Shown: in pieces, positions 11,894-60,714 of the stretch | Layout: the number at the start of each line of letters is the position of its first letter | Position numbering within the stretch: the stretch's first letter is position 1 | NCBI GenBank assembly: GCA_030156615.1 | Contig: JASGME010000004.1 | Span: forward strand, 2,546 to 66,545 | Source: Candidatus Woesearchaeota archaeon | GTDB taxonomy: Archaea > Nanobdellota > Nanobdellia > Woesearchaeales > UBA119 | DNA length: 64,000 nucleotides | Direction: 5' to 3' | Notes under the pieces: generated by a model | Seen by the model: the letters and a program-made list of their open reading frames with translations, nothing else | The model's database searches: none | What the model was told of the DNA's origin: nothing | Made by a program: the position numbers and the translations under genes

Positions 11894-12520
11894 TTAATAT
11901 TTTATCAAAACTAATGCTGTTGAAGCAATCTGAATTCCGTCCATTGTAATATTCTTCTCTATTTCATCTTTTTCTACTAAAGTGATAAGCTCATTTTTTT
12001 GATATTGCTCTAAGATTTTGTTTTTTATCCCTTCAGAAAAATTCACATCAAATAATTCAAGAAATCTTATTGTCTCTTTACCAATTTGCCCAAGCCTGTC
12101 AGTAATTCCCTTGTCGATATAGCAACCAACATACTTTATTCTTATCTCTTCTTCTGAAAAAGAATCCAGAAGTTTTGATTCATCAACTAATTCTTCTTTT
12201 ATTTCTCTATAAGGAGTAATCTCCCTTTCAATTCTTTTATAGAACCAATCTTGGAACTTTAACAAATGTTTCTTTGGCATTGAAAGACGAAGCTCATTCT
12301 CTTCTTGATTCTCAAATTCAGCATCAAACTTATTCTTTAGGTATTCAATAGCAGAAGGTTCAATCTTTATTGCTCCACCTACAGGAGTATAAATCCTCTT
12401 ATTTTCCTTCAATCTGCTTTTGTTTAAAATCAAAAGATATCTTCCAGAAATAATTATCCTGTCTATTGATGCTGCACTTATTCTGATTCTACTGTCCATC
12501 TTTGTATCTTCATTTGACAT
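11894..12520 (-). CDS. hypothetical protein (orphan)
   Basis: 208-aa ORF with coding-like composition; no recognisable motif. Confidence 0.35.
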   Translation of the reverse strand: MSNEDTKMDSRIRISAASIDRIIISGRYLLILNKSRLKENKRIYTPVGGAIKIEPSAIEYLKNKFDAEFENQEENELRLSMPKKHLLKFQDWFYKRIEREITPYREIKEELVDESKLLDSFSEEEIRIKYVGCYIDKGITDRLGQIGKETIRFLELFDVNFSEGIKNKILEQYQKNELITLVEKDEIEKNITMDGIQIASTALVLIKY

Positions 12521-12645: not shown

Positions 12646-14304
12646 TCAATCTCTTGATATTATCTCAAGCATCTTAGCGAATGCAGGTCTCGTTATTAAT
12701 ACGCCAACACTAATTCCTACAAGGGTTGTAAATGCAAATCCCCTTAGAAGACCAGCACCAGCGAAGAATAAAGGTATCATTGCCACTGCTGTAGTGAAGA
12801 AAGCTCCAAGCACGATAAAGAATGCATTTGAGAATCTCTTCTTCCAATTAACATATTTCTCTTTTCTAGAACCCTTAAGGATTTCATCAGATATTACTAT
12901 CTGATCATCAATGCCACTGCCAATAGCAATAATTAAACCACCTATTGCGGCTAAATCCAAATTCCAATTAAATGCAGCTGCAATTCCTAATGTTATTACT
13001 AATTCAGAAATCATTACAATTATTATTGGCAGAATAATATGAGGTGTTTTATAGCGGAGGAACAGCATTAAAACTACTACAATAACTGCTACTAATCCAA
13101 TTTGTATCGAATTAACAAGAAATTCTCTGCCAAGCATAGGTGAAAGAGAATCCATCTTGATAATTTCTATCTTTAATGGAAGACTTCCTGTGGAAATTAT
13201 TGTCCTCAAGCTCTCCATATTTTTCCTGCTTGCTTCAACAGCCTCCTCTCTTGTTTTTCCATAACCCGGTCCCGATATTGAGACCGTTGTTGCTGGAACT
13301 CCTCTTAAATCCCCTGCAATATTCAAGCTGTCAACTAACTCATCATCTAAGTAGAAGTCTATTGTTTCATTCAAATAGGATTGAGCCCCTCCTTGACTTT
13401 GAATTATCTGAAGATCTTTTGTAGCTTCTGCAAACCTTTGGGCTGCTTCTTCTGAAAGTGTAATCTGAAAAGAGAAAGTGCACATATATTCATCAGCAGA
13501 AATCTTTGAGCATCCCTTCTGTGGATCAACTGCATAACTGCATTGTGAAGTTCTACAAACAGAAGTTATATCTTCATTTCCGCCTCTAAAAACTGTTGTA
13601 TTGCCTATCTTCGCCTCAAATTTTCCCTGCTGGGATATAAGTTGCCTAACATCTTCATCATTGGCACCTGCAACCTCAACAATTATGAAATTCTCGCCTT
13701 CCAAATCTCTTGCAGACCTAACAACAATATCTGAAAGACCAAAAGCATTCAACCTTTGTCTCAAATTTTCAATTACTAAATCAAGGTCTTCCTGAGAGAC
13801 CAAAGATGAATTATCAGATGATTGATTCCCTTCTATGTTTGGTATTGGTCTGATTATTGCTCTTGTACCTCCTTCTAAATCCAGTCCAAACTTAAGATTT
13901 GTTTTTGGGGCATCATATACCGATAATCCTAAATAAGGTTCTCCATTCCTGTACTCTATTTTTGGAATGAAATATTCAGCTTTGTTTGTTTTTATCAGAA
14001 TAGATTGATTCTCTTTTAATGTTGAGACGATTGAATAATAATCATCTATGTTTTTAACCTGCATAGAATTTATTTCAGTTATTACTTCCCTATCAATAGG
14101 CATTGTATTTGGTAAAGGAGGCGTTATGTTTGCAAGGTGTGCAGGGCTATCCTTGGCTACCGCTCTTATTGAAACCCCTTCTCTAAAAGGATGAGGATTT
14201 ATTGCTACAATAGCCAATACTAATGCAAATATCAAAAGCCATATTCTCCATTCCTTAAGAAGCATTTTGATTTTTCCCATTCTATTTGTCCCCTTTCTTT
14301 TCAA
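12646..14304 (-). CDS. secD: protein-export membrane protein SecD
   Basis: N-terminal TM, large extracytoplasmic domain, C-terminal six-TM bundle with SecD/F signature GSGIDDQIVISDEI; overlaps secF by 23 nt. Confidence 0.8.
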   Translation of the reverse strand: MKRKGTNRMGKIKMLLKEWRIWLLIFALVLAIVAINPHPFREGVSIRAVAKDSPAHLANITPPLPNTMPIDREVITEINSMQVKNIDDYYSIVSTLKENQSILIKTNKAEYFIPKIEYRNGEPYLGLSVYDAPKTNLKFGLDLEGGTRAIIRPIPNIEGNQSSDNSSLVSQEDLDLVIENLRQRLNAFGLSDIVVRSARDLEGENFIIVEVAGANDEDVRQLISQQGKFEAKIGNTTVFRGGNEDITSVCRTSQCSYAVDPQKGCSKISADEYMCTFSFQITLSEEAAQRFAEATKDLQIIQSQGGAQSYLNETIDFYLDDELVDSLNIAGDLRGVPATTVSISGPGYGKTREEAVEASRKNMESLRTIISTGSLPLKIEIIKMDSLSPMLGREFLVNSIQIGLVAVIVVVLMLFLRYKTPHIILPIIIVMISELVITLGIAAAFNWNLDLAAIGGLIIAIGSGIDDQIVISDEILKGSRKEKYVNWKKRFSNAFFIVLGAFFTTAVAMIPLFFAGAGLLRGFAFTTLVGISVGVLITRPAFAKMLEIISRD

Positions 14305-15298
14305 GATGCATTCTCAAGATTCCAACATTCATTAGCCAAGTGTTCATCAAATCTATTATTAATCCTATAAAGACAATTGCCATAATCTGGATTATTACAT
14401 CTGAAGAAGATAATATTAATGCAATTGTGATTGCAATTAAAGTAGTTAAAGACATCATTATCCCGGTACTGAAAGCATCCTTTGTTCTTTCAAATATGGT
14501 TCCTATCTTGTTTTTTGTTAGTCTCGTTGTTAATAATATATCTGAATCAACAGAATAACCAATTAGCATCAGAAACCCAGCTATGCCTGCAGTAGATATC
14601 CTCATTCCAAGGAGATTTGTAATAGCGATTGTACCAATAATATCAAATACTGCAGAAAGGATTACGGCTACAGATGGCACAATTTTTTTGAAATAAAGAA
14701 TTACAACAACTCCCATCATAATAAAAGCCAATAATAAAGCTATCAAGACTTGCCTAAAAAAGTTTTCACTCAAAGAAGAGCTAATTGTCTCAAGTGAATA
14801 TTCGTCTTCTTTTAATTCTCCTATAGTTTGCTTAACTAAATCAAGAAAATAATCCGCCTCTGATTCATCTATTCCTGCTTCTATTATATATGATTGCGAG
14901 GATGTCGACCTGATAATCCTGGCTATGACATCTGCATCAGGTAAAAGAGTCTCTAATTGGCTTTGAAGTTCTTCAGGTGAAATATCAAGATTCTTGTTCA
15001 GAGTTATAGAAATCCCGCCTTTCAAAGTGATTCCCTTATGAATGATTTCACCAGTTGTTGCATAACTTATTATTAGAACTATAATTGAAAATATTATGAA
15101 TGCGAAAGGAATAATCATTAGTTTTTTATAATTCTTATCAAAGAAATTCCCAATATTCCTATTCTTGAAATTCTTAAATAAGCCATTTAATCCATTGAAA
15201 GATGATTTTCCTTCTTTTAAATGCTTCTTAGTCTTATTATTCGTCTCATCTCTTGATTTTGAAGTCTCTTCATTGCGATTTTCTTTGTTTGAACTCAT
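14282..15298 (-). CDS. secF: protein-export membrane protein SecF
   Basis: SecD/F family C-terminal TM bundle (GYSVDSDILL), smaller periplasmic domain, translationally coupled to secD. Confidence 0.75.
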   Translation of the reverse strand: MSSNKENRNEETSKSRDETNNKTKKHLKEGKSSFNGLNGLFKNFKNRNIGNFFDKNYKKLMIIPFAFIIFSIIVLIISYATTGEIIHKGITLKGGISITLNKNLDISPEELQSQLETLLPDADVIARIIRSTSSQSYIIEAGIDESEADYFLDLVKQTIGELKEDEYSLETISSSLSENFFRQVLIALLLAFIMMGVVVILYFKKIVPSVAVILSAVFDIIGTIAITNLLGMRISTAGIAGFLMLIGYSVDSDILLTTRLTKNKIGTIFERTKDAFSTGIMMSLTTLIAITIALILSSSDVIIQIMAIVFIGLIIDLMNTWLMNVGILRMHLEKKGDK

Positions 15299-16631: not shown

Positions 16632-17099
16632 ATGAAAATCATCAGCAATAAGAATCTAAGAGGACTTGCTTTAATTGACATTATTGCAGGTTTTATTCTT
16701 GTAATTGCTTTATTAAGTTTGATTATTCTAAATGAAAATGAAATCGCTCAAAGAGCAATGCAGTTCCTTTGCTTATTTTCTCTTTGTATCTTCATTAGCG
16801 GTTCAACTGCCTATTTTATTCTTTCAAATATTGCATACAAACTAAGGAAAATCAGAAAGACTGTCAAATCATTTCTTCAACTGCTTAATGATGACGAGAG
16901 AAAGATTGTCTTATTCTTATTAAAGAATGGCGAAAGCAGTCAGAATGAGATTGCAAATTCTACTCATATAAATAAGATGAAGGTCTCGAGGAGAGTTAAA
17001 TCTCTTCAGCAGAAAGGAATCCTTCAGAGCGAATCTGTTGGCCTTAAAAATAAAATTAAGCTTAATAAAAACATTAAGGAATTATTTGATTTAATTTAA
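16632..17099 (+). CDS. membrane-anchored winged-helix (MarR/ArsR-like) regulator
   Basis: Two N-terminal TM helices, then ERKIVLFLLKNGESSQNEIANSTHINKMKVSRRVKSLQQKGIL wHTH. Confidence 0.45.
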   Translation: MKIISNKNLRGLALIDIIAGFILVIALLSLIILNENEIAQRAMQFLCLFSLCIFISGSTAYFILSNIAYKLRKIRKTVKSFLQLLNDDERKIVLFLLKNGESSQNEIANSTHINKMKVSRRVKSLQQKGILQSESVGLKNKIKLNKNIKELFDLI

Positions 17100-25040: not shown

Positions 25041-26177
25041 TTATATAGCAGAGAATAATGAAGAGAATATATTAGATATAAAAAAGAATATTAATCTATA
25101 AGCTATTATTGAGAGAGGGCAATAAATAACTACATATCTTAATGTTCCTCTAAAATTACCTCCTCTAATTACAGAGACAAGCATAGAAGCAGTGAAACTT
25201 GAAACAAGTATTGCTCCAATTATAAAAAATTGTACAAGTTGTGGATCAAAAGAGATGTTAAGTTCTCCAAGATTAAGAGGCATATTAACATTCGGGACAC
25301 TACCTACAGCAGAAAAACTTTCAGTCATGCTTCCAAGAACTCCCAACAAGTTGTATGCTATTGAGAACAGCAATGGAATTATAGCAATGACAATAAGTGA
25401 AATAAAGATTGTATATGCTGTAGATGTTGCACGAATTTCATCCTCTAAAACTTTGTTTTTCTCTAAACTGTCAACTATATTATCAACAATGTGAGCCATC
25501 TCGCTACCACTTTTGTTACTTTCTGCCAGCAATGAGAATGTCCTTAGAAGCTCAGCAGAGTTATATTTCTTTGCGAATTCAAACAAAGCAGAAACCAAAT
25601 CCTCACCAACCATTACTCTCTTAGCCATTAGTCTTATTTCAAAACTCAATTCCTTGTATGAAGGATCAATAGAATTCCACAATGCCCTGTCAAGTGTTAA
25701 TCCTGCTTTTAAATTCTGAGACACTTGCCGCAAGAAATCAGGCAATACCTTCTCCATTGATACTGTTCTTTCATATATTCTATATTCAAAAAAAGAATAG
25801 AATGCTATAAAGACGAGTAATAGAGAAACACCTAAAGCAAGAAATAGATAACCAAAAACATTAAGGAAATTAATATAGACTACTTTGTTTGTAATTATAA
25901 GTCCGACTGTTTCAAATAATGTAAGTTCTCTCCCAATATCTGGCAAAACAATCTCTTCAAGATTTGGAACAACTGAAAAGACAACAAAAAGACTTGAGAA
26001 AAGAAGGGCAAGAACTACGATAATTCCAATAAGACTATAAGGAACCTCTTCAATGCCAGCTTTTAATAAGTAATCGCGAAATCTTGGTCTAATCTTGTTT
26101 GGAATAACAACCCTGCCAAGCTCATGAAAGAATGAAAATCCTTTCTCAGGTTCTTCAATCTGTTGTTTTTTCGTCAT
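25041..26177 (-). CDS. type IV pilus/archaellum platform protein, TadC/FlaJ-like (T2SS-F domain)
   Basis: Polytopic membrane protein with cytoplasmic T2SSF-like helical domain; overlaps upstream platform gene by 4 nt. Confidence 0.55.
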   Translation of the reverse strand: MTKKQQIEEPEKGFSFFHELGRVVIPNKIRPRFRDYLLKAGIEEVPYSLIGIIVVLALLFSSLFVVFSVVPNLEEIVLPDIGRELTLFETVGLIITNKVVYINFLNVFGYLFLALGVSLLLVFIAFYSFFEYRIYERTVSMEKVLPDFLRQVSQNLKAGLTLDRALWNSIDPSYKELSFEIRLMAKRVMVGEDLVSALFEFAKKYNSAELLRTFSLLAESNKSGSEMAHIVDNIVDSLEKNKVLEDEIRATSTAYTIFISLIVIAIIPLLFSIAYNLLGVLGSMTESFSAVGSVPNVNMPLNLGELNISFDPQLVQFFIIGAILVSSFTASMLVSVIRGGNFRGTLRYVVIYCPLSIIAYRLIFFFISNIFSSLFSAI

Positions 26178-26989
26178 AGTGACACCGCTGGTTTGGACGA
26201 TTTTGCGTTAAATACAAAGAGGAATTGAAACAGGAACAAAGCTGAAAGGAGAACTAAGAAAAAAACAATGTTTGTTTCAAGTCCCATTATTGACATGATT
26301 ATTATGCCAAGTACCATAGCAAGTGCAGGAAAGACCCCGCCTAAGACTAAGTAAAACATTGTTATTGCATTTAATTTCTTTTCATAACCCTTCAACTCAT
26401 TGAATTGTTCATCTCTAATAGAATCTAAAACCTGTCTTAATGGCTCTGCAACATCTGCTCCTGTTTTTATTGCAGTAAGAATTTGTGTAAGTATCCTTTT
26501 AAACTTATCTGAAGGAGAGGTATCTCTCGCTTCTTCTAATGCCTTTTCTATTGGTACCCCAGACATTATCGTATTAACAATCTCTTTGAATACTCCAGAA
26601 GAAATTCCATAACTATTTGATGCATCAATAAGAGCTTTAAATAAAGGTTCTCCGGATTCAATTTTAATTAAAAGATACCTTCCAGCGTATAAAATCTCTT
26701 GATCATACTTTTTCTTCATTCTAAGAATCATCGCTTTAGGGTAATTCAGGAATACAAAAAAGAAGAATATATATACAATCGGAAACAAAAACAAAAGATA
26801 AATTGGAGTTTCAATCAAACCAAAAGCCAATCCGATTGCTATTGTAATCATAAAAGAAAAGAAAAAAGTCATAGAATATGTTCTCTTTAAGAATTCATCA
26901 AAGCTACCCTTATACTTAGCTGTTTCAAGATCTCTTTTCAGATTAGACTGATCTACAAATGGTGGGACTTTTGTTTTCTTTTTTCTCAT
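26174..26989 (-). CDS. type IV pilus/archaellum platform protein, TadB/FlaJ-like (T2SS-F domain)
   Basis: Second half of a split PilC/FlaJ-type platform protein; TM helices flank a soluble helical domain. Confidence 0.55.
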   Translation of the reverse strand: MRKKKTKVPPFVDQSNLKRDLETAKYKGSFDEFLKRTYSMTFFFSFMITIAIGLAFGLIETPIYLLFLFPIVYIFFFFVFLNYPKAMILRMKKKYDQEILYAGRYLLIKIESGEPLFKALIDASNSYGISSGVFKEIVNTIMSGVPIEKALEEARDTSPSDKFKRILTQILTAIKTGADVAEPLRQVLDSIRDEQFNELKGYEKKLNAITMFYLVLGGVFPALAMVLGIIIMSIMGLETNIVFFLVLLSALFLFQFLFVFNAKSSKPAVSL

Positions 26990-27102
26990 TGTTAAAATTT
27001 TCCCCTTCTTAAAATAATGTTTTTATTTTTTATCGCTTTTTATGATAATACCTTTATGACTTAATATATACTTTTATGGCTTAATATTTTAGATGGCATT
27101 GT

Positions 27103-28710
27103 TTATTCTTGATTATATTTTCTCATATAATAACGGGCAATAATTGAGCCAATCCTGTCAACATCATTTATGTTTTTTGATACCAGCCAGCGAAGAATCT
27201 CTTTCTTAGCTTCTAAATCATCTTCAATCTCAGAATCTGTTAAACCAGTATAAAGAGCGATAGTGTCATATAATCTTCTTGGCTTCTTAATTATGTTCAT
27301 CTCATGCCTTGCTATATTATACTGCATGATAAGATCAGCATTTCCTTCAGAATCAACCTCAGCAAGCTGCAAAGTCATTCTCTCACCAGTTCTCCTGTTT
27401 CTATACTGAACGCATATAAGAGATATTGCTGAAAGCATATGACGAGGCACCTCTATCGGAGGATTGACAAGCCTTCTTACAGTTTCATCAGCATTGTTTG
27501 CATGTAAAGTTGCATAAACTGAATGGCCTGTATGCATAGCCTCAAACAACACTTCTGCCTCTCTTTTTCTTCTTATCTCTCCAACGACGACCCTATCAGG
27601 TCTCATTCTTAAAGAATTAACAACAAGATCAAGCATAGTAACCTCTCCCTTACCTTCTGGATTTGGCAGTCTTGTTTCCAAAGGAATCCAATGAAGATTC
27701 TTTGGAAGAGTAATTTCTCTGGTATCTTCAATAGAGATTATTCTTTGGTTTGCAGGGAAGAAATTTGAGATTACATTAAGCATAGATGTCTTTCCTGAAC
27801 CTGTTCCGCCAGTGATAAGAATTGATAATTCGTTTTCAACAGCCAACCAGAGGAGAGCTGCTGCATCGTATCCAATTGTATTGCTCTTAAGAAAATCTGT
27901 TATTGTCCATGGCTTAGTCGCAAATTTTCTTATTGTTATTGTATTACCAAAAGAAGAAATTGGCTGAAGGGTAGCATTTACTCTGTCTCCGGTTGAGAGA
28001 TGAGCATCCATCAGAGGGCTAAGAACAGTGATCTCTTTTCCAATCTCTCTGCCAATCATTGTTGCGTAATGTCTTATCTTTTCCTCTGATTCAACAAGTA
28101 TATTTGTTTTGAGCCATTTGTGTTTCCTGTGATAAACCCAGACAGGTTCTTTTGAGCTGTTAATTGCAATCTCTTCCAAATTTGGATCTTTAAGAATAAT
28201 ATCAATCTTGCCTAAGCCTACATTTTCAAGAATTAGATGATTCACCAAAACAGCCATTGTTTTATCATCTATATGTGGAAAATGATTCCTGATTAAATTT
28301 TCAATCTCTTCTGAGAATTGATTTTTTATTTCATCAAAGTCAACAGATTTTGATAGATCAATATCACCGATTCTAATCTTTCTTATGAATTCTTCTTTAA
28401 TCTTATCAAGAACTACCTGAGTAATCTGACTGATATTTGCTATTGAGACATTATATTCTGGAACAAAATCTCCTTTCTTAAATATAATTTTTATATTTAC
28501 TAAAAGCCCATTTACATTCAACTGATATGATGAAAGAACTTTGAAAGTTTTTTCTGTAGATTCAGCTTTCTTTGACTCTTTTACAATCTTCTCGTGAGAT
28601 GGCTGAACTTCGGGGACCTTTTCAGCTTCAGGCACACTTTTTAATTTATTCGTTGAGGGAAAATCAATTTTATCTTGAGTATTATTCTTTTTTTTAAAAG
28701 GATTATTCAT
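27103..28710 (-). CDS. type II/IV secretion-family ATPase (archaeal FlaI/ArlI/PilB-like)
   Basis: Walker A ITGGTGSGKTS, Walker B VVVGEIR, His-box; GspE/VirB11 superfamily length. Confidence 0.8.
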   Translation of the reverse strand: MNNPFKKKNNTQDKIDFPSTNKLKSVPEAEKVPEVQPSHEKIVKESKKAESTEKTFKVLSSYQLNVNGLLVNIKIIFKKGDFVPEYNVSIANISQITQVVLDKIKEEFIRKIRIGDIDLSKSVDFDEIKNQFSEEIENLIRNHFPHIDDKTMAVLVNHLILENVGLGKIDIILKDPNLEEIAINSSKEPVWVYHRKHKWLKTNILVESEEKIRHYATMIGREIGKEITVLSPLMDAHLSTGDRVNATLQPISSFGNTITIRKFATKPWTITDFLKSNTIGYDAAALLWLAVENELSILITGGTGSGKTSMLNVISNFFPANQRIISIEDTREITLPKNLHWIPLETRLPNPEGKGEVTMLDLVVNSLRMRPDRVVVGEIRRKREAEVLFEAMHTGHSVYATLHANNADETVRRLVNPPIEVPRHMLSAISLICVQYRNRRTGERMTLQLAEVDSEGNADLIMQYNIARHEMNIIKKPRRLYDTIALYTGLTDSEIEDDLEAKKEILRWLVSKNINDVDRIGSIIARYYMRKYNQE

Positions 28711-28738
28711 CTCTTTTCCCTCCTTTTTTCTTAGTTTT

Positions 28739-30679
28739 TTATTCTTTTTTATTCACTTGATTGTTTTCTACATTCTTTAAACTCTCATTTGGAAATAAAT
28801 TAAGCGACGATAGTATGCTTTTGTTAACCTCTTCATATTCTTCTCTAAGTTTATCATAAAGATTCAATATTTGAAGTCTTAACATAGTCTTCTTCTCTAA
28901 AAAGCCACCCGGCAATTGATCATATAACCTTAAAATCTCTTCATAAATCTCCTGAGCTTTTTTCAATTCTTTTTTATTTATATTTTCATTAGCTTGTTCA
29001 ATTAGATCCTTTATCTTATTAAACGATGAAGAGAAGTTCTTTATCTTATCCTGAAGAATTAATTCATTTATCTTTGAATAATCTTCTAGTAATCTTTCTT
29101 GCACAGGAATCTTATCCTTTAAAAATCCCTCTGGAAGCTTCTTAAACAATGAGACCGCTTCTAAATAGCTCTTGATTGCTAATGCAGTATTCTTAGAATT
29201 TATGGCTTTTTCAATAATATTTATCTGAGAATTGAGATTTGACATCCCTTCAGCAAAGGTTTCTCTATGAATCTGCTCTGAGATTGTGTCAATCTTATGC
29301 GAGATTTGAATAAATTCACCACGAATCCTTTTCTTTTCTATGTAGAAATCATTAGATATTGTATCAATTAATTTATTTGCAAGATCTAATAGGTTCTTGG
29401 CCTCTTTAATCTCCTTTTTGGCTAATAGAGAATCTATCTTCTTCTTTATGGCATTTAATTTATCTTCAGTCATAGAAAATTTTTTAGTTTCAATATCCCT
29501 CTTTGTTTGTAGCAACCTTGCCTTTGTCCGAAGCATCTTTGATTGTAACTCGCTCTTCCTCTTTAAGAAGCCTGAAGGAAGTTCATTGAATAACTTAGTT
29601 GCTTTTCTTAAAGAATCCTCTGCAAAGCTTATTTTCCCTCTCCCGGCATAGCTTTTTGCTTCTGAAATAAGAATCATAATCTGTTTTTCTTTTGAATTGA
29701 ACTCTTCCTCAGACTTTTTCATAAGATTCTGGGCAAGCTGCCTATCAAAATCAACGATATCATCAACTACTTCAACATTCTTTTTATAGTATATCGCAGG
29801 GATCTGAGCTCTCAATTCTGAAATTCTCTTATACATCTGCCTTGCCTTATCAAGATCTCCTTTCCTTGCAAGTTCTTTAGATTGCTCAATTAGATATTTT
29901 ATTTCCGAAAAAATCTCGGAGCCAGTACCTTCAGAAGGAAGATTCTTTTCCACATCTGTCAATCTTTTTTGCTCTTCGATATCAATTAAACTTAAAATTT
30001 GAGTTTGCATCTCTTTAAGGTTTTTCAATGTAGTATTTTTTGCAACCTTTGCTTTCATTGCAGAGATCTTTCCTGTAGCAAAATTCTCTAATACCTTTCT
30101 AATAATCTGATAGGCAGAAAGAATTTTTTTCTTTGCATCAGAATCTGCATAAACTGAATCTATGTATGATGAAATCTCTTCCAATTGCGACAGAATCTCT
30201 GAAGCAGTTGCCGAATCCAATGACTTGCTGTTTTTTATTATCCCTTCAATATCCTTTAACATTGCTATAATGTCAATTCCCCTTTCGCTTGTGCTTTTTT
30301 CTTTCTCCGAGCTAATCAATCCTTTGTTGATTCTTTTGCTTGATTCTTCAGTTTTAGATTGAACAGGCTGACTTTCAGATGAAGATTTGCCAACATATCT
30401 GAGAAGAGGAGAAGAGAGGCCATAATTGATAGTAATAAGATTATCTTCTTCTAAAAAAAGAGCCCACTGCTCTACTACTTTTGGATTTGTTTTGAGAATT
30501 TTAGCTGCTTCGTCAATGGAAATTTCCCCTCTTTCTTTGACTAAATCAAATAGTTCATCTACTAAAGTAGTCACTTCTCCCTGATTTGCCATGTTAATTA
30601 ACACCAGCTTTTTATTAATTTTGAATGAATTGCTTAAGTTTATCTTACCAAATGATTGTTTAAAAAATGTTTTAATCAC
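28739..30679 (-). CDS. 646-aa coiled-coil protein with N-terminal winged-helix and three LPxGFLxxK repeats
   Basis: N-terminal GEVTTLVDELFDLVKERGEISIDEAAKIL wHTH; long heptad regions; motif F(N/K)(E/K)LP(S/E/G)GFL(K/E)(R/D/K)K three times. Real start may be Met30 (MANQG, 30592). Confidence 0.4.
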   Translation of the reverse strand: MIKTFFKQSFGKINLSNSFKINKKLVLINMANQGEVTTLVDELFDLVKERGEISIDEAAKILKTNPKVVEQWALFLEEDNLITINYGLSSPLLRYVGKSSSESQPVQSKTEESSKRINKGLISSEKEKSTSERGIDIIAMLKDIEGIIKNSKSLDSATASEILSQLEEISSYIDSVYADSDAKKKILSAYQIIRKVLENFATGKISAMKAKVAKNTTLKNLKEMQTQILSLIDIEEQKRLTDVEKNLPSEGTGSEIFSEIKYLIEQSKELARKGDLDKARQMYKRISELRAQIPAIYYKKNVEVVDDIVDFDRQLAQNLMKKSEEEFNSKEKQIMILISEAKSYAGRGKISFAEDSLRKATKLFNELPSGFLKRKSELQSKMLRTKARLLQTKRDIETKKFSMTEDKLNAIKKKIDSLLAKKEIKEAKNLLDLANKLIDTISNDFYIEKKRIRGEFIQISHKIDTISEQIHRETFAEGMSNLNSQINIIEKAINSKNTALAIKSYLEAVSLFKKLPEGFLKDKIPVQERLLEDYSKINELILQDKIKNFSSSFNKIKDLIEQANENINKKELKKAQEIYEEILRLYDQLPGGFLEKKTMLRLQILNLYDKLREEYEEVNKSILSSLNLFPNESLKNVENNQVNKKE

Positions 30680-30812
30680 GCTTCAATAACAACAACTATA
30701 AAATAGAAGGAAATTTTATGAGCAAGGCATTATAAAAAACGGATTTTATTTTAAACCAATGTAAAAAAGTTAACTTTATAAAACATCGGATAAGTAATTT
30801 AATGGAATCATA

Positions 30813-31406: not shown

Positions 31407-32240
31407 TTAAATTATAATCTCCCTTTGATTATAAACGTTTGAGTATGGAACCTCTCCAAATTCACAATTCTTGCATGTTGGATCAAGAGCAATCCAATTT
31501 CCCTCTGTCTTTTTAGTGAATGGAAGCTCAGGCATATAAGCATTAACATAAATATGTCCTTTTATTAGAATAAAACGCGTTTCTATTCCTATCTGTTGAA
31601 GAAGATTGGCCAGCAAGATCGATTTTCCATCACAATCCGCAGCTCCTGAAATCAAAACTTCCAAAGGATTTTCAAAGTATTCCTCTTTTGGATCTGGAAT
31701 ATAAGAAATACTATCTCTCACAAATAAGTAAATTGCCTGAGCTGCACACCCCTCATAATCTCTACATGATTTTGTTGAAATATAATCTGCAAGAGCCTTT
31801 AATCTATAATCTTGGTAATTCTTATAATAATTAAGTAACAGAACAATATCCATCTCTTTTTCTTCTTTCAATTTGGTTTCATCAAGTTGAATCTGTTCAA
31901 TAAGATAAGAAATATGGGGATCATTTAACATGGGAACATCTTTTGGCTTATCAAAAGAATCTATGAAAAATGTTGAGTAAAAGCCTATTACAATAAAGAA
32001 TAAACAGATAGACACAAATATCTTAAATAAGATATTTCCCTTATTTGATGTTTCAGATGATTGAGAATCTCCGACTTCAATATACTTATCTAGATTTTCT
32101 TCAGAAAATTGTTCTTTTATAGGTTGAGAATTCATTTTAAAAAGAGAAAAGATTAAAAGTGATTTAAATCTTTCTAAATATATGAATGGATCTTTTATTG
32201 GAGCTGAGGCTGTAATAACCTTTGACGGCGATATTGTCAT
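31407..32240 (-). CDS. membrane-anchored transglutaminase-like cysteine protease
   Basis: Cys-His-Asp core: DCDGKSILLANLL..GIETRFI..GHIYV...NWIALDPT; N-terminal TM. True start probably Met36 (32135), which would remove the overlap with bud32. Confidence 0.55.
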   Translation of the reverse strand: MTISPSKVITASAPIKDPFIYLERFKSLLIFSLFKMNSQPIKEQFSEENLDKYIEVGDSQSSETSNKGNILFKIFVSICLFFIVIGFYSTFFIDSFDKPKDVPMLNDPHISYLIEQIQLDETKLKEEKEMDIVLLLNYYKNYQDYRLKALADYISTKSCRDYEGCAAQAIYLFVRDSISYIPDPKEEYFENPLEVLISGAADCDGKSILLANLLQQIGIETRFILIKGHIYVNAYMPELPFTKKTEGNWIALDPTCKNCEFGEVPYSNVYNQREIII

Positions 32241-42579: not shown

Positions 42580-44976
42580 TCAATTTTTTTCTCTTTTGAC
42601 TTCCCTTATAGCTTTTCTCATGTAGCTGTTTATTCTCTTGTATTCCCCTTTATTTAACATATCATCTATTTCTGACTCCAGCTTAGTTAGATATTTATCT
42701 GATGGTATATATTCATTTATTTTTTCCAATTTCGTTAAATAACTAAGATAATATTTGGAAGGCATTTTTTCAGCTTTACTCAGCAAAAGTTTTAAATGCA
42801 TCCTCTTACTAGGACCCAAATAAAAAAAAGGGAATTTTTGAGTTTCTTTTAAGTAAGTTCCAATTAGATTTTCAATTCCACCAGCATTCCAAATTTCTTT
42901 TTGATTTCTAAAATACTTCTTAAATGATTCCATTGCAGGAACGATCAAATCGTCTATTCCAATATGGTAAGAAAACTTTCCCCTTTTTATGTTTTTGCTA
43001 TTTTTTTTGTTTACATAGTTTACATATTCTGAGATAATATTATCATAAAAGGTGCGTGCTGCCTCAACTATTTGTTTCTCACTAGCCCCTTCCTTTTTAA
43101 ATGATCTGAAAATGTTATTTAAGTCGGAAATGTGAAAGTCGGAAATGTGAAAATAAAATGGAGGATAAATTTCAGGTTCTTTTGAAAGTAAATCTGAAAT
43201 GAAATTTGCTCTCTTTTCAAAAATACCATCCATCATATCTATATAGGAGTCTCTCATCCTTGGATTCTCAAATTCTTTTGCAAATTCTACAACTTCTTCA
43301 AAATCTAAAGCGATATTTTTTTCTAGACCTTGGAATAATTTTGGAATAGAAGGATATTCAATCTTTTCAAACTCATTCTTTTTTACTTTCTTATAAACTT
43401 CTTTTTCGAACTTTTTTCCTAAATATCCTTTCAGTGGTGCTCTCGCAACTTCTTTAACTATTCCTTGATCCTCTTGTGCTGCTTTCTTTACAGCATTCAA
43501 ATATGTTTTTTTCTCTCGTTTATTTTTAAAACCTCTAAGGATATCATCAATTTCTTTTTCTGATAAAATAGGGTTATCAACTGAACCTTTTAATTGTTCT
43601 AAAACATTGATTACATCATCTAAGTAGACATCAAAATCCTTTCCCTTTTTAGTCATTGCAGTGTTTGAAAAAACTCCAACACCATATCCAAAATCTGAAA
43701 CTTTGTCCATAGTTTTCAAAAACTTTTCTAATTTTTCTCCTCTGTATTTTAAAGCTGATTCTGTTAAGGAATCAACTTCAGAATCAAGATCACTTGGTTT
43801 TGATATAGAGCTCCTGTTAATCAGGATATCTGTTAGATAACTCAAATATAACTTTCTATCAGAATCCTTCTGAATTGCTTCATTGGTTGGCTTTAATCTT
43901 TTTACACTTTCCGTTTCTTTTGATCCTTCCATTTCTTTCAAGACCCCTTTGAAACGGGATATATATCTTTTAAGTATATTAGTTTTTCTATGATCATCAA
44001 ATTTCTGATACTTGTCAATATTGTTAAATAAATTATCTAATGAATGCGCTACATCATAACTAGCCAAATCATTTTTTTCTGCTTCTTCAAATCTTTGTTT
44101 TAATTTATTTCTCCATTCCAAGCCTCCAAAAGAATCCCTTGCTTTTAATACAGATTCCTTATTTAAGGCATTTAACAATACTTCCAATGTTTTTTTGTTT
44201 TCATCTTTGTCCTTTCCTTTTTTCAGTGCTCTTGAAACAGCAGTTGCTATAATAAGTTCATCGTCCCCGGAATATTTCTTTAAAGTTTCAAAAAACTTCT
44301 TTGTGATTTCGTTTGAGTTCTCATATTCTTTTATTTGTGTTATGTCTTCATTGAGTGTTCTTAAAAATGAAGGATAATAATCTTCGAATCCTTTGTATTC
44401 CGGCACAAGATATTCATCAATGCTTTTTAAGAATCCTTTGTCAAGTTCTTTGTAATCCTTTTGTTTGTTCAATTCATCCAAAGTTGAATTTAGAAGTCCA
44501 ATCTCTTTAGCAGCTTTCATTGGTTTTATATTCTCTCTATAATTCCCAGTAGAATACTTTAAAACCTTATTGTAAAGATTAAGCATATCATATAATTCGT
44601 CTTTATACAATTCATTTTTTTTGATCTCTAATGAGTTTTCATCTGTTTCTTCAGTTTCATTTAAAGTATGAAATTCCTTTGAATATATTTCTCTAATTTT
44701 ATGATTCTTTTCAATAATTTCTTTCTTTAATAAATCATATTCGTCAGGGAAAAAAGAAGTATTCTTTAGAATTGAATAAATCATATTCTCATCAGTTATT
44801 GCCAGTATATCCACAAGAGATTTTAAGCTAGAATCTTCATGTGGGAATCTAGGTATTCCTTTGGTTAATATATTATACTCTGGATGTTTTCTTAGAATCT
44901 TGTCTATTCTATGAGCATTTCTTGACATGCTCTCTATAGGCTTTTCCTTTGACTTTTCTTTTTTCTTCGATAACAT
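42580..44976 (-). CDS. 798-aa lysine-rich orphan protein
   Basis: Long uninterrupted ORF; no recognisable catalytic motif; contains a perfect 15-nt tandem duplication (43123-43152) encoding FHISDFHISD. Confidence 0.4.
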   Translation of the reverse strand: MLSKKKEKSKEKPIESMSRNAHRIDKILRKHPEYNILTKGIPRFPHEDSSLKSLVDILAITDENMIYSILKNTSFFPDEYDLLKKEIIEKNHKIREIYSKEFHTLNETEETDENSLEIKKNELYKDELYDMLNLYNKVLKYSTGNYRENIKPMKAAKEIGLLNSTLDELNKQKDYKELDKGFLKSIDEYLVPEYKGFEDYYPSFLRTLNEDITQIKEYENSNEITKKFFETLKKYSGDDELIIATAVSRALKKGKDKDENKKTLEVLLNALNKESVLKARDSFGGLEWRNKLKQRFEEAEKNDLASYDVAHSLDNLFNNIDKYQKFDDHRKTNILKRYISRFKGVLKEMEGSKETESVKRLKPTNEAIQKDSDRKLYLSYLTDILINRSSISKPSDLDSEVDSLTESALKYRGEKLEKFLKTMDKVSDFGYGVGVFSNTAMTKKGKDFDVYLDDVINVLEQLKGSVDNPILSEKEIDDILRGFKNKREKKTYLNAVKKAAQEDQGIVKEVARAPLKGYLGKKFEKEVYKKVKKNEFEKIEYPSIPKLFQGLEKNIALDFEEVVEFAKEFENPRMRDSYIDMMDGIFEKRANFISDLLSKEPEIYPPFYFHISDFHISDLNNIFRSFKKEGASEKQIVEAARTFYDNIISEYVNYVNKKNSKNIKRGKFSYHIGIDDLIVPAMESFKKYFRNQKEIWNAGGIENLIGTYLKETQKFPFFYLGPSKRMHLKLLLSKAEKMPSKYYLSYLTKLEKINEYIPSDKYLTKLESEIDDMLNKGEYKRINSYMRKAIREVKREKN

Positions 44977-54412: not shown

Positions 54413-54940
54413 TTGATGCAAATGAATCTCAAAAACATTATTCAGGATATAATGGGGATTATTATTGCCCTTTCAATCTCAGCCCTTACACTTGCAAGTA
54501 TAGTTGCAGGCGTATATTCTACTGGAATAATAAATGATAGCGATAGCTTAACCAACTTTTTCTCATTGCAAACCCCGATAGAAGAAGCTCCTCAAGACAT
54601 TATTAAAGAAAAAGATATTAAGATAAGGCACAATTCTGTCATCATAAATGTTAAGAATGCATCAATTGTTGAGATTGAACAGCCATACTTAAATCTATTA
54701 CTTCTCCCTAAAGGCAGTCATGCTCTCCTGATAGATCCATCATCACTAGATCAACTATCCTTTGATAGCTTAAAAGAAGGAGACATAGTATACTATGAAT
54801 CAGGGAATAATTCAACAGGATTTTCAAGAATCTTTGAAATACACACTGAAAATAATATCACTTATTTTATAGATGCATTTACAAAAAAAAGCATTAAGGA
54901 AGATGAAATAATTGGTGTAGTTGCGGCCTTCACTTATTGA
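54413..54940 (+). CDS. membrane-anchored hypothetical protein
   Basis: N-terminal signal-anchor, then beta-rich soluble part; no firm family motif. Confidence 0.35.
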   Translation: MMQMNLKNIIQDIMGIIIALSISALTLASIVAGVYSTGIINDSDSLTNFFSLQTPIEEAPQDIIKEKDIKIRHNSVIINVKNASIVEIEQPYLNLLLLPKGSHALLIDPSSLDQLSFDSLKEGDIVYYESGNNSTGFSRIFEIHTENNITYFIDAFTKKSIKEDEIIGVVAAFTY

Positions 54941-54989
54941 TTATCTCTTTCAATATCATTCAATCAGTTCGATCCTTTTTCCTATTAGC

Positions 54990-55742
54990 TTATATTACAT
55001 TTAGCAATGAGTAAACCATCCTGTCTCCTGCATGCTCTAGAACAGAAACATTCTCACCGCTAATGATAATACAATCATCTCTAAAGAAAATTCTATTACC
55101 AGAAGTTTCGTTTATTTCATACCTGATTACAGAAACAAAAGTCTCTGTTCTATTTTCAACATTAATCATATCGCCTTCCGAAGCATTGTAGCAATCAATG
55201 ACCATTGCAGCTTTATCATCGTAACCAGCTGGAATATAAGTTACCCCAACAACACTTGGAATTCCTAATATGCCCGTATTGTTCTTTCTAGGATTTAGAA
55301 TCTTTGAAATTTCCATGGCAGATAATCCAACACTGCTTGGCATAAAAGGATCTGTAGTTATAAAAACAACATCTGAGCTTAGCAACCTATCTTTGATTTT
55401 GCTTTCATTTATAATCTCAATATATTCAACCTCTTCAGGATTATACCTGACCATCAATTCATAAGACTGATTTCCAACCTTGACTAGAGTAGACCAACCA
55501 ACAAGCTCTTTCTTAAAAATGAAATCATTATATTTTATTATCCCTGGACTAGAATGATTGTCTTTTTCTCCTTTTAAATGAAAATCAATTACCCCAAGCT
55601 GTTGTAAAAGCAACCATAAAAAAGCAACAGCAATCATTACAATGATAATATTGACAGCAAAAATCTTTATCCTGCCTTTTTCTTTTCTTTTATGTATCGC
55701 CATATTAATCACTAAAAAAGTTTTCTTCGTTAATAACTCCAA
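54990..55742 (-). CDS. membrane-anchored hypothetical protein
   Basis: Basic N-terminus (KRKEKGR) then a single TM; overlaps the upstream gene by 38 nt. Confidence 0.35.
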   Translation of the reverse strand: MELLTKKTFLVINMAIHKRKEKGRIKIFAVNIIIVMIAVAFLWLLLQQLGVIDFHLKGEKDNHSSPGIIKYNDFIFKKELVGWSTLVKVGNQSYELMVRYNPEEVEYIEIINESKIKDRLLSSDVVFITTDPFMPSSVGLSAMEISKILNPRKNNTGILGIPSVVGVTYIPAGYDDKAAMVIDCYNASEGDMINVENRTETFVSVIRYEINETSGNRIFFRDDCIIISGENVSVLEHAGDRMVYSLLNVI

Positions 55743-56352
55743 GCCTTACATATTCAACCAATTCAAAGAATTGAATAACATCATAAGGAGTATTTGAATC
55801 TATTTCAATTTCATAGCATTGCTCTCCAATCTTATTTAAAACACTTTCGTTTCCCTCATTAAAGATTACTACAGGCGACATGGTTGAGTTGATGCAGTTA
55901 ACCTGAGCTAAACTTCCACCATCCACGAATCCCTGAATTATTTTAATGGGTTTTATCCCACCGAGATTTTTTTCAATCTCAAGCCTGCCATAGGAAACAT
56001 AACCAGTGAGATCAGAATTTTCATGAGTAGAAACAAGCAATATAGGTGTTTTTTGAATAATATTAAAAAGTTCCTTTGAAAGATTAAAAGTCTTTATCTC
56101 TGATGGGAGAAAATTAAATCCGATATCTTTTCTGTTGTATTTAAGAATCCATCCATTGTTTGTCATTGAAAAACTATAATCCCCAAACACTATTTCATTC
56201 TCAGGATTTCCTTGAGAATTCATTATGGCAAATTGGATTGTACTACCAACAAAAAGAAAAGCCACGAGAAGACTCCAGATAAGCATATTTCTCTTTCTTC
56301 TCTTCTCTTTTTTAATATTTTTCAATTCTTTTTTAGCCATTTGTAGTTCCAC
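55705..56352 (-). CDS. membrane-anchored hypothetical protein
   Basis: Basic N-terminus (KKEKRRKR) then a single TM. Confidence 0.35.
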   Translation of the reverse strand: MELQMAKKELKNIKKEKRRKRNMLIWSLLVAFLFVGSTIQFAIMNSQGNPENEIVFGDYSFSMTNNGWILKYNRKDIGFNFLPSEIKTFNLSKELFNIIQKTPILLVSTHENSDLTGYVSYGRLEIEKNLGGIKPIKIIQGFVDGGSLAQVNCINSTMSPVVIFNEGNESVLNKIGEQCYEIEIDSNTPYDVIQFFELVEYVRLGVINEENFFSD

Positions 56353-59061: not shown

Positions 59062-60714
59062 ATGGAATTTGGACCAATTTATAACTTTCTTTCAACAAAA
59101 ATCTGGCCAATTTTCTTTGAATATGGAAAATTCTTTGCTTATCTTACACTTATTCTTACGATAATCTCAATTATATTGTCTATCTTAGTAATAAAAGAAA
59201 GATTCATTAATTCAAATAAATCAAAGAGAAGAAAAGACAACAAATCCTATTTCATGATTCTTTCCCTACTTTTAATAATCTCCTCTTTTGTTTATTGGTC
59301 AGTCGCATCTGAGAGAGTCTTTTTTTCATATGATGAGACTGATTTGAAGTTTTATATCGCTTCAATTAGACTTGCTCAAGAAGGAGAGTTTCGTCCATCT
59401 GGAACCCCCTTAGGGGGTTTTTCTTACATTTTGATCTTTCTCTTTAGAATTTTTCCATCATTGACAGATCCTTTTAACCTTTTCTACTTTATAATTTGGA
59501 TGAACTATTTTGTTCTACTTTTCATGATTTTTTTGATTTTTGACATGTTTTATTTAAAATCAAAAAACAAGTTAATTCCGATTTTTCTTACTTTGACTAT
59601 TCTATTTTATACACCCCTAATTGAGAGTATTTGGTATTACAAGCTTTATTATACAATTTGTCTCGCTGGACTTTTCTTTACATATTATGTATTCATCAGA
59701 ATGAACGATTTACAAAAGAATAATAAACTAACTAAGTTAGGAAAATTTTACTATCCGCTGCTGATTTTAATCCTTCTTTTCTTAACTAGTCATAGCCGTC
59801 CAGAATTATTAATTCTCTCTTTTCCAATACTTATTTATTCTATCCCTTTTCTCATTAAAGAATTTAAAAGTTGCAGATGGCAAGGAAGATTATATTATAT
59901 TATTTTAATATCTTTTTTTATCTTGATTCATATAGATGTTCTTTCATGGTATATTTTATCAAATAGCCAAAGATTGAATGATGGAACACTTCAATTCAAC
60001 AGGCCTGTAATAAGCAGAGATATTATGAATGTCTTTGAATGGCTTTCATACTCCTTCATATTTGTTTTACTTTTTTCTAAGAAAACAGCAATATTTGGTC
60101 TCTTGTACATCCCTTTTTTCACTTATATTAGATTCTCTCTTATGTGGGATTGGCTTCTTTATCCAACATATTTTGTCTTTGCATTATTTTTAATTCTTTA
60201 TAATTTTCCAATATTTACTAACAAAAAGACAACATCTTTAGCAATATCAATAGTTTTATTCCTTTCAATGTTTGCATTATCCCCCTTTTATCCTTTTGAA
60301 AGAAATTTGTTCTATTATCCTCTTCAATATTCTGAAAAAGATGATGATGGCTCTCAGATTTTGTATTTAAAGGAATATTTAAAGGATAAAGAATATATAA
60401 TTTATGAATCTTGGCCAGATATCTTTTCGACTTACATCTTTTCAGATTCTCCTTCTGAATTCAAGGAATTCCGTAAAGAATTAAGTAGCAATATGAGCAT
60501 TTTTTTTAGAGATGGATATCATCTCAATCTATCTTCTTCATTTTTTTTAGAACAAGAAAAGCCTGTTTTATTCGCTTATAATCGAGATATAACGGATTAT
60601 ACGCTCTATCTCAACGATTCAAATGTAACTTTTAGCAAACTTATAGATAAACCATTTGCTTACAATCTATATGAGCTTCATTTTCACTTTTATGATGAAA
60701 ATATTACAAAATAA
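59062..60714 (+). CDS. polytopic membrane protein, putative GT-C-type glycosyltransferase
   Basis: At least 11 TM helices with an aromatic-rich C-terminal soluble domain; sits in a sugar-modification cluster. Confidence 0.35.
   Translation: MEFGPIYNFLSTKIWPIFFEYGKFFAYLTLILTIISIILSILVIKERFINSNKSKRRKDNKSYFMILSLLLIISSFVYWSVASERVFFSYDETDLKFYIASIRLAQEGEFRPSGTPLGGFSYILIFLFRIFPSLTDPFNLFYFIIWMNYFVLLFMIFLIFDMFYLKSKNKLIPIFLTLTILFYTPLIESIWYYKLYYTICLAGLFFTYYVFIRMNDLQKNNKLTKLGKFYYPLLILILLFLTSHSRPELLILSFPILIYSIPFLIKEFKSCRWQGRLYYIILISFFILIHIDVLSWYILSNSQRLNDGTLQFNRPVISRDIMNVFEWLSYSFIFVLLFSKKTAIFGLLYIPFFTYIRFSLMWDWLLYPTYFVFALFLILYNFPIFTNKKTTSLAISIVLFLSMFALSPFYPFERNLFYYPLQYSEKDDDGSQILYLKEYLKDKEYIIYESWPDIFSTYIFSDSPSEFKEFRKELSSNMSIFFRDGYHLNLSSSFFLEQEKPVLFAYNRDITDYTLYLNDSNVTFSKLIDKPFAYNLYELHFHFYDENITK

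Follow-up and report, generated by a model that had tools for sequence, protein, structure and literature searches.

Layout of the operon

A four-gene operon on the minus strand of contig JASGME010000004.1 of a Candidatus Woesearchaeota archaeon was analyzed together with the surrounding DNA; "the window" denotes the whole stretch of 64,000 nucleotides (64 kb) in which it lies. The operon contains a gene for a pilus assembly ATPase, two genes for platform proteins (F1 and F2) and a first gene, here called X. The locus is very probably a type IV pilus (T4P) assembly operon of the Tad/Epd-like kind in a DPANN-type archaeon, with X functionally tied to the machine. X represents a large nameless family of ATPase-linked winged-helix proteins with modular architecture and is the new part of an otherwise ordinary operon.

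A sequence-only reading of the window had described four co-directional, tightly packed genes, and all four open reading frames (ORFs) were present as described, that of X in its longest form at 28739-30679 (Table 1). X and the ATPase gene are separated by 28 nt and the ATPase gene and F1 by 113 nt, while F1 and F2 overlap by 4 nt (26174-26177). None of the four genes has a second copy in the window.

Table 1. Coordinates of the operon genes, of the features of X and of its promoter region, and loci with two variant architectures of X.
Feature	Position	Strand	Remarks
Gene X (first gene)	28739..30592	-	617-aa protein, predicted cytoplasmic: winged helix, linker, helical region, five 74-aa repeats; ORF extendable to GTG 30679
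Pilus assembly ATPase (T2SSE/VirB11 superfamily, FlaI/CpaF-like), 535 aa	27103..28710	-	Pfam, NCBIfam and PDB matches
Platform protein F1, TadB/EpdJ-like, 271 aa	26174..26989	-	one T2SSF domain, 4 transmembrane (TM) segments
Platform protein F2, TadC/EpdK-like, 378 aa	25041..26177	-	one T2SSF domain, 5 predicted TM segments
Winged helix of X, residues ~6-66	30395..30577	-	family-wide conserved module; window sequence ...VVEQWALFLEEDNLITINYGLSSP...
Five tandem 74-residue alpha-helical repeats of X, residues 221-586	28835..29932	-	repeat profile and structure model
Promoter-like BRE/TATA element GATTAAAACATTTTTTAAAC	30658..30677	-	66-85 nt upstream of ATG 30592; read from the sequence
Conserved upstream element CTATTTTATAGTTGT	30692..30706	-	~100 nt upstream of the X start
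CBS pair + C-terminal winged helix	loci L116, L120, L135, L141, L148, L159		
TM segment(s) + C-terminal winged helix	loci L123, L140, L145, L151-L153, L160		

The second gene had been called a FlaI/PilB-like ATPase, in agreement with its match to Pfam T2SSE (1.7e-38; cutoff 24.9 bits). Among NCBIfam models it matched FlaI with 2.8e-73, which is under the cutoff of that model, and TadA with 3.8e-58; among the solved structures in the PDB, afGspE (2oap, 9.8e-68), FlaI (3.5e-49) and CpaF (6.6e-45) were matched. The Walker A motif (GGTGSGKTS), the Walker B motif and the His box (HTGHSVYATLHA) are intact, and RPDRVVVGEIR is also visible in the translation. An archaellum identity was not borne out: the ATPase scored 247.5 bits against an NCBIfam FlaI cutoff of 550, and no gene for a KaiC-like ArlH or an archaellin adjoins the operon.

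The platform had been read as split into a TadB-like and a TadC-like part with a 4-nt overlap. The two adjacent genes do each exceed the Pfam gathering cutoff for T2SSF (25.2), F1 with 52.6 bits (5.8e-14) and F2 with 44.4 bits (1.9e-11). In NCBIfam, F1 aligned to residues 15-233 of the 484-residue UpsF model, i.e. the N-terminal half, and F2 to positions 281-539 of the 555-position ArlJ/FlaJ model, i.e. the C-terminal half. Since F1 and F2 are separate genes in 48/48 complete related loci, the split is no frameshift artefact.

One T2SSE ATPase gene combined with two platform genes is also the arrangement of the Epd pilus of Methanococcus maripaludis (ATPase EpdL with the two PilC paralogues EpdJ and EpdK) and of the bacterial Tad/Flp system (CpaF/TadA, TadB, TadC) (PMC4371748). 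CpaF was among the best solved-structure matches of the window ATPase, and relatives of the window operon encode pilins with class III signals (Q at +1, E at +5; see below). The window differs from these systems in that TadZ/CpaE, a secretin and EppA were not found in it, and neither Epd nor Tad has been described with a winged-helix protein as first operon gene. It is well supported that the four genes encode the core, in cytoplasm and membrane, of an Epd/Tad-like archaeal T4P machine; taken by itself, the operon of ATPase and split platform encodes a machine of a familiar, ordinary kind.

Translation start, fold and repeats of X

The sequence-only reading had assigned 646 aa to X with a start at GTG 30679, which is probably wrong. 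Two homologues of 590 aa (55% identical) start at the residue aligned to M30, the 29-residue N-terminal extension has a predicted local distance difference test score (pLDDT) <50 and is predicted to be disordered, and the GTG is placed at the edge of the promoter-like string GATTAAAACATTTTTTAAAC, which is common to locus L001 (related loci carry L numbers). For these reasons, translation most likely starts at ATG 30592, which would give 617 aa, and the earlier label of a giant protein is not supported.

The structure of X was modeled with AlphaFold2 (AF2) using a 40-sequence alignment (mean pLDDT 85.6, predicted template modeling score (pTM) 0.47). The model consists of a winged helix (wH; helix-strand-helix-helix-strand-strand), a disordered linker, a helical region and the repeats. 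The N-terminal wH had already been proposed, and structure prediction and Foldseek agree on it: the domain superposes on MarR, ArsR, TFE-alpha and Z-alpha with a root mean square deviation of 1.1-2.4 Å over ~60-67 residues (probability 1.0). The window wH matched the hidden Markov model (HMM) of its own family with 8.3e-18, the wH profile matched the helix-turn-helix (HTH) domains of Lrp/AsnC and TFE weakly (E 2.6e-3 to 1e-2), and no curated HTH family in Pfam matched the window X at E ≤ 0.1.

A threefold LPxGFL motif had been noticed in X. The three copies are present and perfect, yet they are the best-preserved instances of a larger unit, namely five tandem repeats with anchors at residues 264, 338, 412, 486 and 560 of the 617-aa protein and hence a period of exactly 74. 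In the AF2 model, each repeat is composed of a ~48-residue helix, a 16-residue helix and an LPxGF(L)-type loop, and all five match the family-derived repeat HMM with independent E-values of 5e-12 to 6.5e-25. The long coiled coils of the earlier description were not confirmed. The periodicity of hydrophobic residues in the long helices has its peak at 3.6-3.7 instead of 3.5, so these helices resemble those of a bundle and not a canonical coiled coil, and "helical repeat array" appears to be the better description of X. For the repeat array, Foldseek gave no significant match to PDB folds (best hit, the TPR protein P58IPK, E 2.2e-3, TM ~0.1). Matches to TPR families stayed below threshold (TPR_12, 22.2 vs. 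30.1 bits), and the repeat period is 74 residues.

Searches of X against the Pfam and NCBIfam families and against PDB sequences revealed no family and no relative. They also gave no SMC or partition family, a match to which would have counted against the sequence-only reading. No TM segment or signal peptide was predicted in any of the 152 listed representatives of the family, and X is, by prediction, cytoplasmic.

Linkage of the X family to the pilus ATPase

An exhaustive profile search with X gave 699 cluster representatives (150-1261 aa) at E ≤ 1e-3, 93 of them at ≤ 1e-30. In the source databases, the members are nameless or listed as 'hypothetical protein', and none is in Pfam. The wH is present in 135/152 listed representatives. 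A word-indexed protein search with X found two homologues only, in the closest relatives GCA_002505945.1 and GCA_964580745.1. In both, the gene order is TYW3, then X-ATPase-F1-F2, then thermosome; since the whole neighborhood is syntenic, these two genomes prove little about the linkage of X and ATPase.

For more distant loci, one genome per species was scanned with a 12-sequence alignment of the wH, which worked for locus retrieval, whereas a 35-sequence full-length alignment was too diverse. This X-anchored set comprised 79 loci, nearly all from records titled Woesearchaeota, Nanoarchaeota or Nanoarchaeia; 68 were usable, i.e. they had a complete X and ≥ 600 bp of downstream DNA. The ATPase gene starts ≤ 400 nt downstream of X on the same strand in 61/68, with a median gap of ~18 nt and, in several pairs, an overlap of 4-8 nt. 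In five further loci, the ATPase gene is 0.9-2.1 kb away because X is frameshifted or a gene is inserted. The remaining two are one clear exception (L045) and one locus with too little downstream DNA. Wherever ≥ 4.5 kb of downstream DNA was available (48 loci), the ATPase gene and both platform genes follow X (48/48).

As a control unbiased toward X, 80 metagenome loci were collected via an ATPase alignment (43-66% identity), 70 of them with ≥ 700 bp upstream of the ATPase gene. An ORF with an X-type wH lies directly upstream in 57/70. The other 13 include several helical ORFs cut by the contig end, two ORFs with repeats in which a wH was undetected and one with a diverged C-terminal wH. As the linkage was found from the X side and from the ATPase side, it holds well beyond the close relatives. 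Conservation of X with the ATPase gene in related genomes, on which the sequence-only reading had made its proposal depend, was thus confirmed in both sets.

These numbers also bear on the view that X has nothing to do with the pilus and is an SMC-like, partition or cytoskeletal coiled-coil protein which merely neighbors the ATPase gene. X is indeed all-alpha with long helices, and the synteny of TYW3, operon and thermosome in the two closest relatives is, taken alone, weak proof of a link. Against this, the linkage recurs in 61-66/68 distant genome loci and in 57/70 metagenome loci whose wider neighborhoods differ; the helices lack a heptad periodicity; and no SMC, partition or filament family was matched at threshold, nor any SMC head or hinge or ParB/Seg-type domain. 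The synteny tests have largely refuted this view, and what is left of it seems very improbable.

Some loci deviate from the common pattern. In L089 (235-1224) and L101 (2-1021), 74-aa repeats without a detected wH lie directly upstream of the ATPase gene. The L089 protein has an MDIDEFLD... N-terminus, which is common to the profile matches P0079, P0141, P0143, P0146 and P0148, and a TPR motif at its end; the ORF in L101 is truncated by the end of the contig. One of the few breaks in the X-ATPase pair was seen in L076 (5105-6275), where two small genes (186 and 218 aa) come between X and the ATPase gene. The product of the first has an HTH-like beginning, and the two may be a mobile toxin-antitoxin-like pair. 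ATPases of ~1000 aa in four loci were considered as X-ATPase fusions, which was ruled out: they contain intein-like insertions at two different sites, after the Walker A lysine (GGTATGK|C...) in L060 (1698-4709) and L082 (1314-4352), and after ...RIISVED|S... in L083 (8535-11558) and L085 (470-3493).

Pilins and prepilin peptidase

In many related loci, one to four small genes directly follow the platform genes, and pilin-like ORFs were found in 33/85 loci. They begin with classical prepilin signals of the form K[AG]Q|AAMEFLMTYGWAILVVL, which combine Q at +1 and E at +5 with a hydrophobic helix, for instance KAQAAMEFLMTYGW... or K[AG]Q|AAMEFLMTYGW.... No Pfam family matched these proteins, and their identity as putative pilins rests on the prepilin motif. 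The prepilin signals behind the platform genes of the relatives settle the nature of the machine as a T4P.

In the window, as in its two closest relatives, F2 is followed by the thermosome gene and not by pilin genes. The absence of a pilin or prepilin peptidase gene beside the operon had been noted from the sequence, and it extends to the whole window: FlaFind-like scans found no pilin in the 64 kb, and a Pfam scan of the six polytopic proteins outside the operon (SecD, SecF, an M48 peptidase and three without Pfam match) found no A24 peptidase of the PibD, FlaK or EppA kind. The pilins and the prepilin peptidase of this genome must be encoded elsewhere.

Two candidates were rejected as pilins. 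The proteins at 54413-56352, which the sequence-only reading had suggested as class III substrates, have N-terminal signal anchors and contain neither a [KRDE][GA] class III motif nor a domain matched in Pfam. The protein at 16632-17099 (plus strand; 155 aa) has the class III-like N-terminus KNLRG|LALIDIIAG..., two hydrophobic segments and a C-terminal winged HTH (DUF7343, 6e-10; HTH_24, 2.3e-9). Its N-terminus thus belongs to a membrane-anchored winged-HTH protein, a putative regulator.

The winged helix as constant module

The sequence-only reading had suggested that X may be a scaffold or ruler or else a regulator, each of which may still apply. The comparison of related loci shifts the emphasis from the repeats to the wH as the conserved module linked to the ATPase gene. 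The wH consensus is TxVDxLxxLVKxKKEISxxDAAKxLxVPxxT[VI]EAWAxFLEEEGxLxIKYKFTTPYL. Across the mainstream family, identity in the wH is ~50-65%, compared to ~20% in the rest of the protein. The 74-aa repeats are confined to the long forms of X, where they occur in 5-8 copies; forms of ~150-190 aa and of ~380-390 aa have other helical tails.

The architectures found linked to the ATPase gene comprise an N-terminal wH with 74-aa repeats, with other helical regions or with a short tail (150-190 aa), a CBS pair with a C-terminal wH (Pfam CBS, 5e-30 to 8e-32), one or more TM segments with a C-terminal wH, and a wH alone (~98 aa). The checked ORFs of the CBS and TM types (Table 1) end -58 to +34 nt from the start of the ATPase gene, with L135 and L152 not counted as adjacent. 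Since the same wH is encoded directly upstream of the ATPase gene in such varied architectures, it behaves as a portable module tied to this gene. The family member P0150 (657 aa) contains five tandem copies of the X-type wH (residues ~5-54, 108-160, 254-300, 392-436 and 547-593).

Docking or DNA binding by the winged helix

In the profile alignment with the Lrp-type HTH, the TVRARVNRLVKEG helix of the family is aligned to TIEAWATFLEEEG, and the arginines of the Lrp-type TVRARVNRL are replaced by invariant E, W and F. The mean net charge over 139 family members is -3.3 for the wH and -3.9 for the segment of the recognition helix, in which basic residues make up ≤ 7% at nearly every position. 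The exposed, invariant aromatic and acidic residues at positions that usually contact DNA may point to a conserved protein partner.

On this basis, we lean toward reading X as a motor-docking accessory or regulatory subunit and not as a DNA-binding regulator. X would be co-transcribed from its own BRE/TATA-like promoter (BRE, B recognition element) and would serve the motor formed by the hexameric ATPase as an accessory or regulatory subunit in the cytoplasm. The wH would be the docking module for a conserved protein partner, most plausibly the ATPase or else the platform on its cytoplasmic side, and the interface would be the invariant surface patch E-x-W-A-x-F-L-E-E-E, which takes the place of arginines in the DNA-binding relatives. 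The domain attached to the wH is exchangeable between lineages, being 5-8 repeats, another helical region, a nucleotide-sensing CBS pair or membrane anchors. Speculatively, the five-repeat array of the window X could serve as an elongated scaffold or an oligomerization surface at the base of the machine.

Several points weigh against this interpretation. The docking role of the wH is derived from gene linkage and surface chemistry, and the wH is a classic DNA-binding fold. The relative in L025 passes the Pfam threshold for HTH_24 (24.7 vs. 21.9 bits), whereas consensus family members have sub-threshold matches only, to HTH_24, PCI and RPA_C. The ...LEEEG motif, which contributes part of the negative charge, is also carried by genuine Lrp/AsnC regulators. 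With a pTM of 0.47, the three-dimensional arrangement of the repeats is uncertain, which affects the scaffold part of the proposal. UpsX, the sole positional analogue studied experimentally (see below), is not needed for pilus assembly (PMC3892339). Furthermore, membrane-anchored HTH regulators of archaeal pili and archaella such as ArnR and arCOG00381 are known (PMC4858521), so that the TM-anchored variants of the wH do not exclude a transcription factor.

Some of these points would fit a transcription factor which autoregulates the pilus operon, its wH binding an operator near the X promoter and the attached domain sensing a signal or mediating oligomerization, possibly in analogy to HTH-TPR quorum regulators or to the membrane-bound ArnR. 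The fold matches the domains of MarR, ArsR, Lrp and TFE, the three-helix and beta-wing arrangement being the same as in Lrp/AsnC HTH_24, MarR, ArsR and TFE-alpha regulators. The repeat region weakly resembles the TPR sensors of the Rap/NprR type (Foldseek, E 1.4e-2 to 3e-1), and the variants with CBS pair and wH resemble ligand-controlled regulators.

A possible operator was also found. The BRE/TATA-like element AAAnnTTTAAATA is present upstream of X in most related loci, and the window string GATTAAAACATTTTTTAAAC occurs there in L001-L004; a promoter function of the latter may be assumed from the sequence. Upstream of it, the element CTATTTTATAGTTGT could be an operator, an upstream activating sequence or part of an extended promoter. 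Many long-form loci have related elements (TATTTTnTAGTnGT) that immediately precede the BRE/TATA and lie 60-106 nt upstream of X, and CTATTTTATAGTnGT describes the element shared by the window and many loci of this form. The loose core pattern, of the TAGTnGT type, gave 35 matches vs. ~9.5 expected. The pattern is confined to the long-form clade and hence not decisive; the only motif seen upstream of X in all architecture classes of the related loci is BRE/TATA.

The restriction of the element to one clade is at odds with a universal wH, and the wH is far better conserved than would be expected of regulators with operators that diverge from order to order. The recognition helix nearly lacks basic residues, carries E, W and F in place of the Lrp-type arginines and is negatively charged across the 139 members; it thus differs from that of the wH regulators, and the window X remains below the Pfam HTH thresholds. 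X also differs from these regulators in that its wH has 74-aa repeats, CBS pairs or TM segments attached and keeps to one gene neighbor. X and the ATPase gene lie close together, and often the stop codon of the former overlaps the start codon of the latter, which suggests that the two proteins are made in near-stoichiometric amounts. Taken together, autoregulation by X is considered unlikely, albeit with an appreciable probability.

Analogues of X in other pilus loci

X had been said to have no counterpart in described archaeal systems. This was too strong, because UpsX and arCOG07564 occupy comparable operon positions and are positional analogues. The ups operon of the Sulfolobales has the order upsX-upsE-upsF-upsA-upsB, with UpsX conserved wherever the operon occurs (PMC3892339). 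When gene order, size and location were compared, and only these, UpsX resembled X: it is encoded by the first gene of a T4P operon, directly upstream of the ATPase gene, and is a cytoplasmic protein of ~600-700 aa without a database domain. UpsX differs in that it reportedly has no detectable domains, whereas X has a clear wH and 74-aa repeats, and in being crenarchaeal, whereas X is found in metagenome-assembled genomes of the Woesearchaeota/Nanoarchaeota type.

The likeness raises the possibility that X is an UpsX-like factor, expressed along with the pilus, brought to the membrane, dispensable for assembly and acting in DNA uptake or transfer or in the interaction with host cells. UpsX, a 79-kDa cytoplasmic protein without domains, is dispensable for pili, promotes DNA transfer and is partly membrane-associated after induction (PMC3892339). 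The gene order of the window operon corresponds to upsX-upsE-upsF-pilins of Sulfolobus, and the non-wH part of X is lost or replaced in many lineages, which suggests a modulatory over a core structural role. A study of the genes required for natural transformation of Methanococcus maripaludis (PMC10133366) reportedly mentions epdJ, epdK and epdL. On the other side, X lacks an NCBIfam match, and the window offers no hint of partners in DNA processing. This explanation, to which we assign a rather small probability, overlaps with the docking role and does not exclude it.

Many uncharacterized cytoplasmic coiled-coil or alpha-helical proteins are encoded in archaeal T4P loci, as described by Makarova, Koonin and Albers 2016 (PMC4858521). 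One of them, arCOG07564, is a predicted intracellular coiled-coil 'regulatory subunit' upstream of pilin and ATPase genes in the halobacterial subclade 4F; the subclade further includes ATPases of nanoarchaea for which no pilins have been identified (PMC4858521). By its description, arCOG07564 (~170 aa) is near the short forms of X (150-190 aa), but it is aspartate-rich and restricted to Halobacteria, and no wH is mentioned for it. A wH family of the X kind is not mentioned in that survey (PMC4858521). Full-text literature searches found no published description of the X family, and a literature search for HVO_A0114, a Pfam winged-HTH family which recurred among the sub-threshold matches, found nothing.

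A docking role for X would have functional parallels. Non-catalytic or regulatory cytoplasmic proteins which dock to the motor and are encoded beside the ATPase gene include ArlX, ArlCDE, ArlH, TadZ/CpaE, PilZ/FimX and GspL, of which ArlX is a coiled-coil ring scaffold. No similarity to X in sequence or fold was detected for any of them; ArlX has a TM anchor and ArlH and TadZ have a P-loop, whereas X has neither. It is put forward tentatively, as somewhat short of an even chance, that the X-type wH is a previously undescribed docking domain dedicated to the T4P motor of Woesearchaeota/Nanoarchaeota-type (DPANN) archaea, by which interchangeable modules (rods of 5-8 repeats of 74 residues, CBS nucleotide sensors and membrane anchors) are plugged into the machine.

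T4P are the main candidates for host-attachment, and possibly DNA-uptake, organelles in DPANN archaea, which depend on other cells. To our knowledge, almost nothing is known about how the motors of DPANN pili are built and controlled. A family which heads most such pilus operons, with a strongly conserved small domain and partner domains that swap between lineages, is an obvious missing component. If the wH docks on the motor, it would represent a new accessory principle for type IV filament machines, and the CBS and repeat-number variants would provide a handle on motor regulation. If the wH is a dedicated docking domain, X would form a new class of T4P motor accessories, functionally comparable to ArlX, ArlH, TadZ and PilZ yet unrelated to them, by which host-dependent archaea could couple pilus assembly to the cellular state. 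If it binds DNA instead, X would be an operon-specific regulator that is widespread and whose recognition helix is unusual.

Other genes in the window

Two genes upstream of the operon, at 31407-32240 (minus strand), a membrane-anchored protein with a transglutaminase core (2e-9) is encoded, which was also found in L001-L002 and L005. Transglutaminase-family peptidases have been linked to some archaeal T4P loci (Makarova et al. 2016, PMC4858521). Three large proteins had no Pfam match at E ≤ 1e-3, namely a 798-aa protein at 42580-44976 (minus strand), a 550-aa protein with 8 predicted TM segments at 59062-60714 (plus strand) and a 578-aa protein with 12 at 60754-62490 (minus strand). Adjoining secD and secF (12646-15298), a protein with a SMODS-associated NUDIX domain (PF18167, 4.8e-27) is encoded at 11894-12520 (minus strand); this domain is usually discussed with nucleotide-signaling defence systems.

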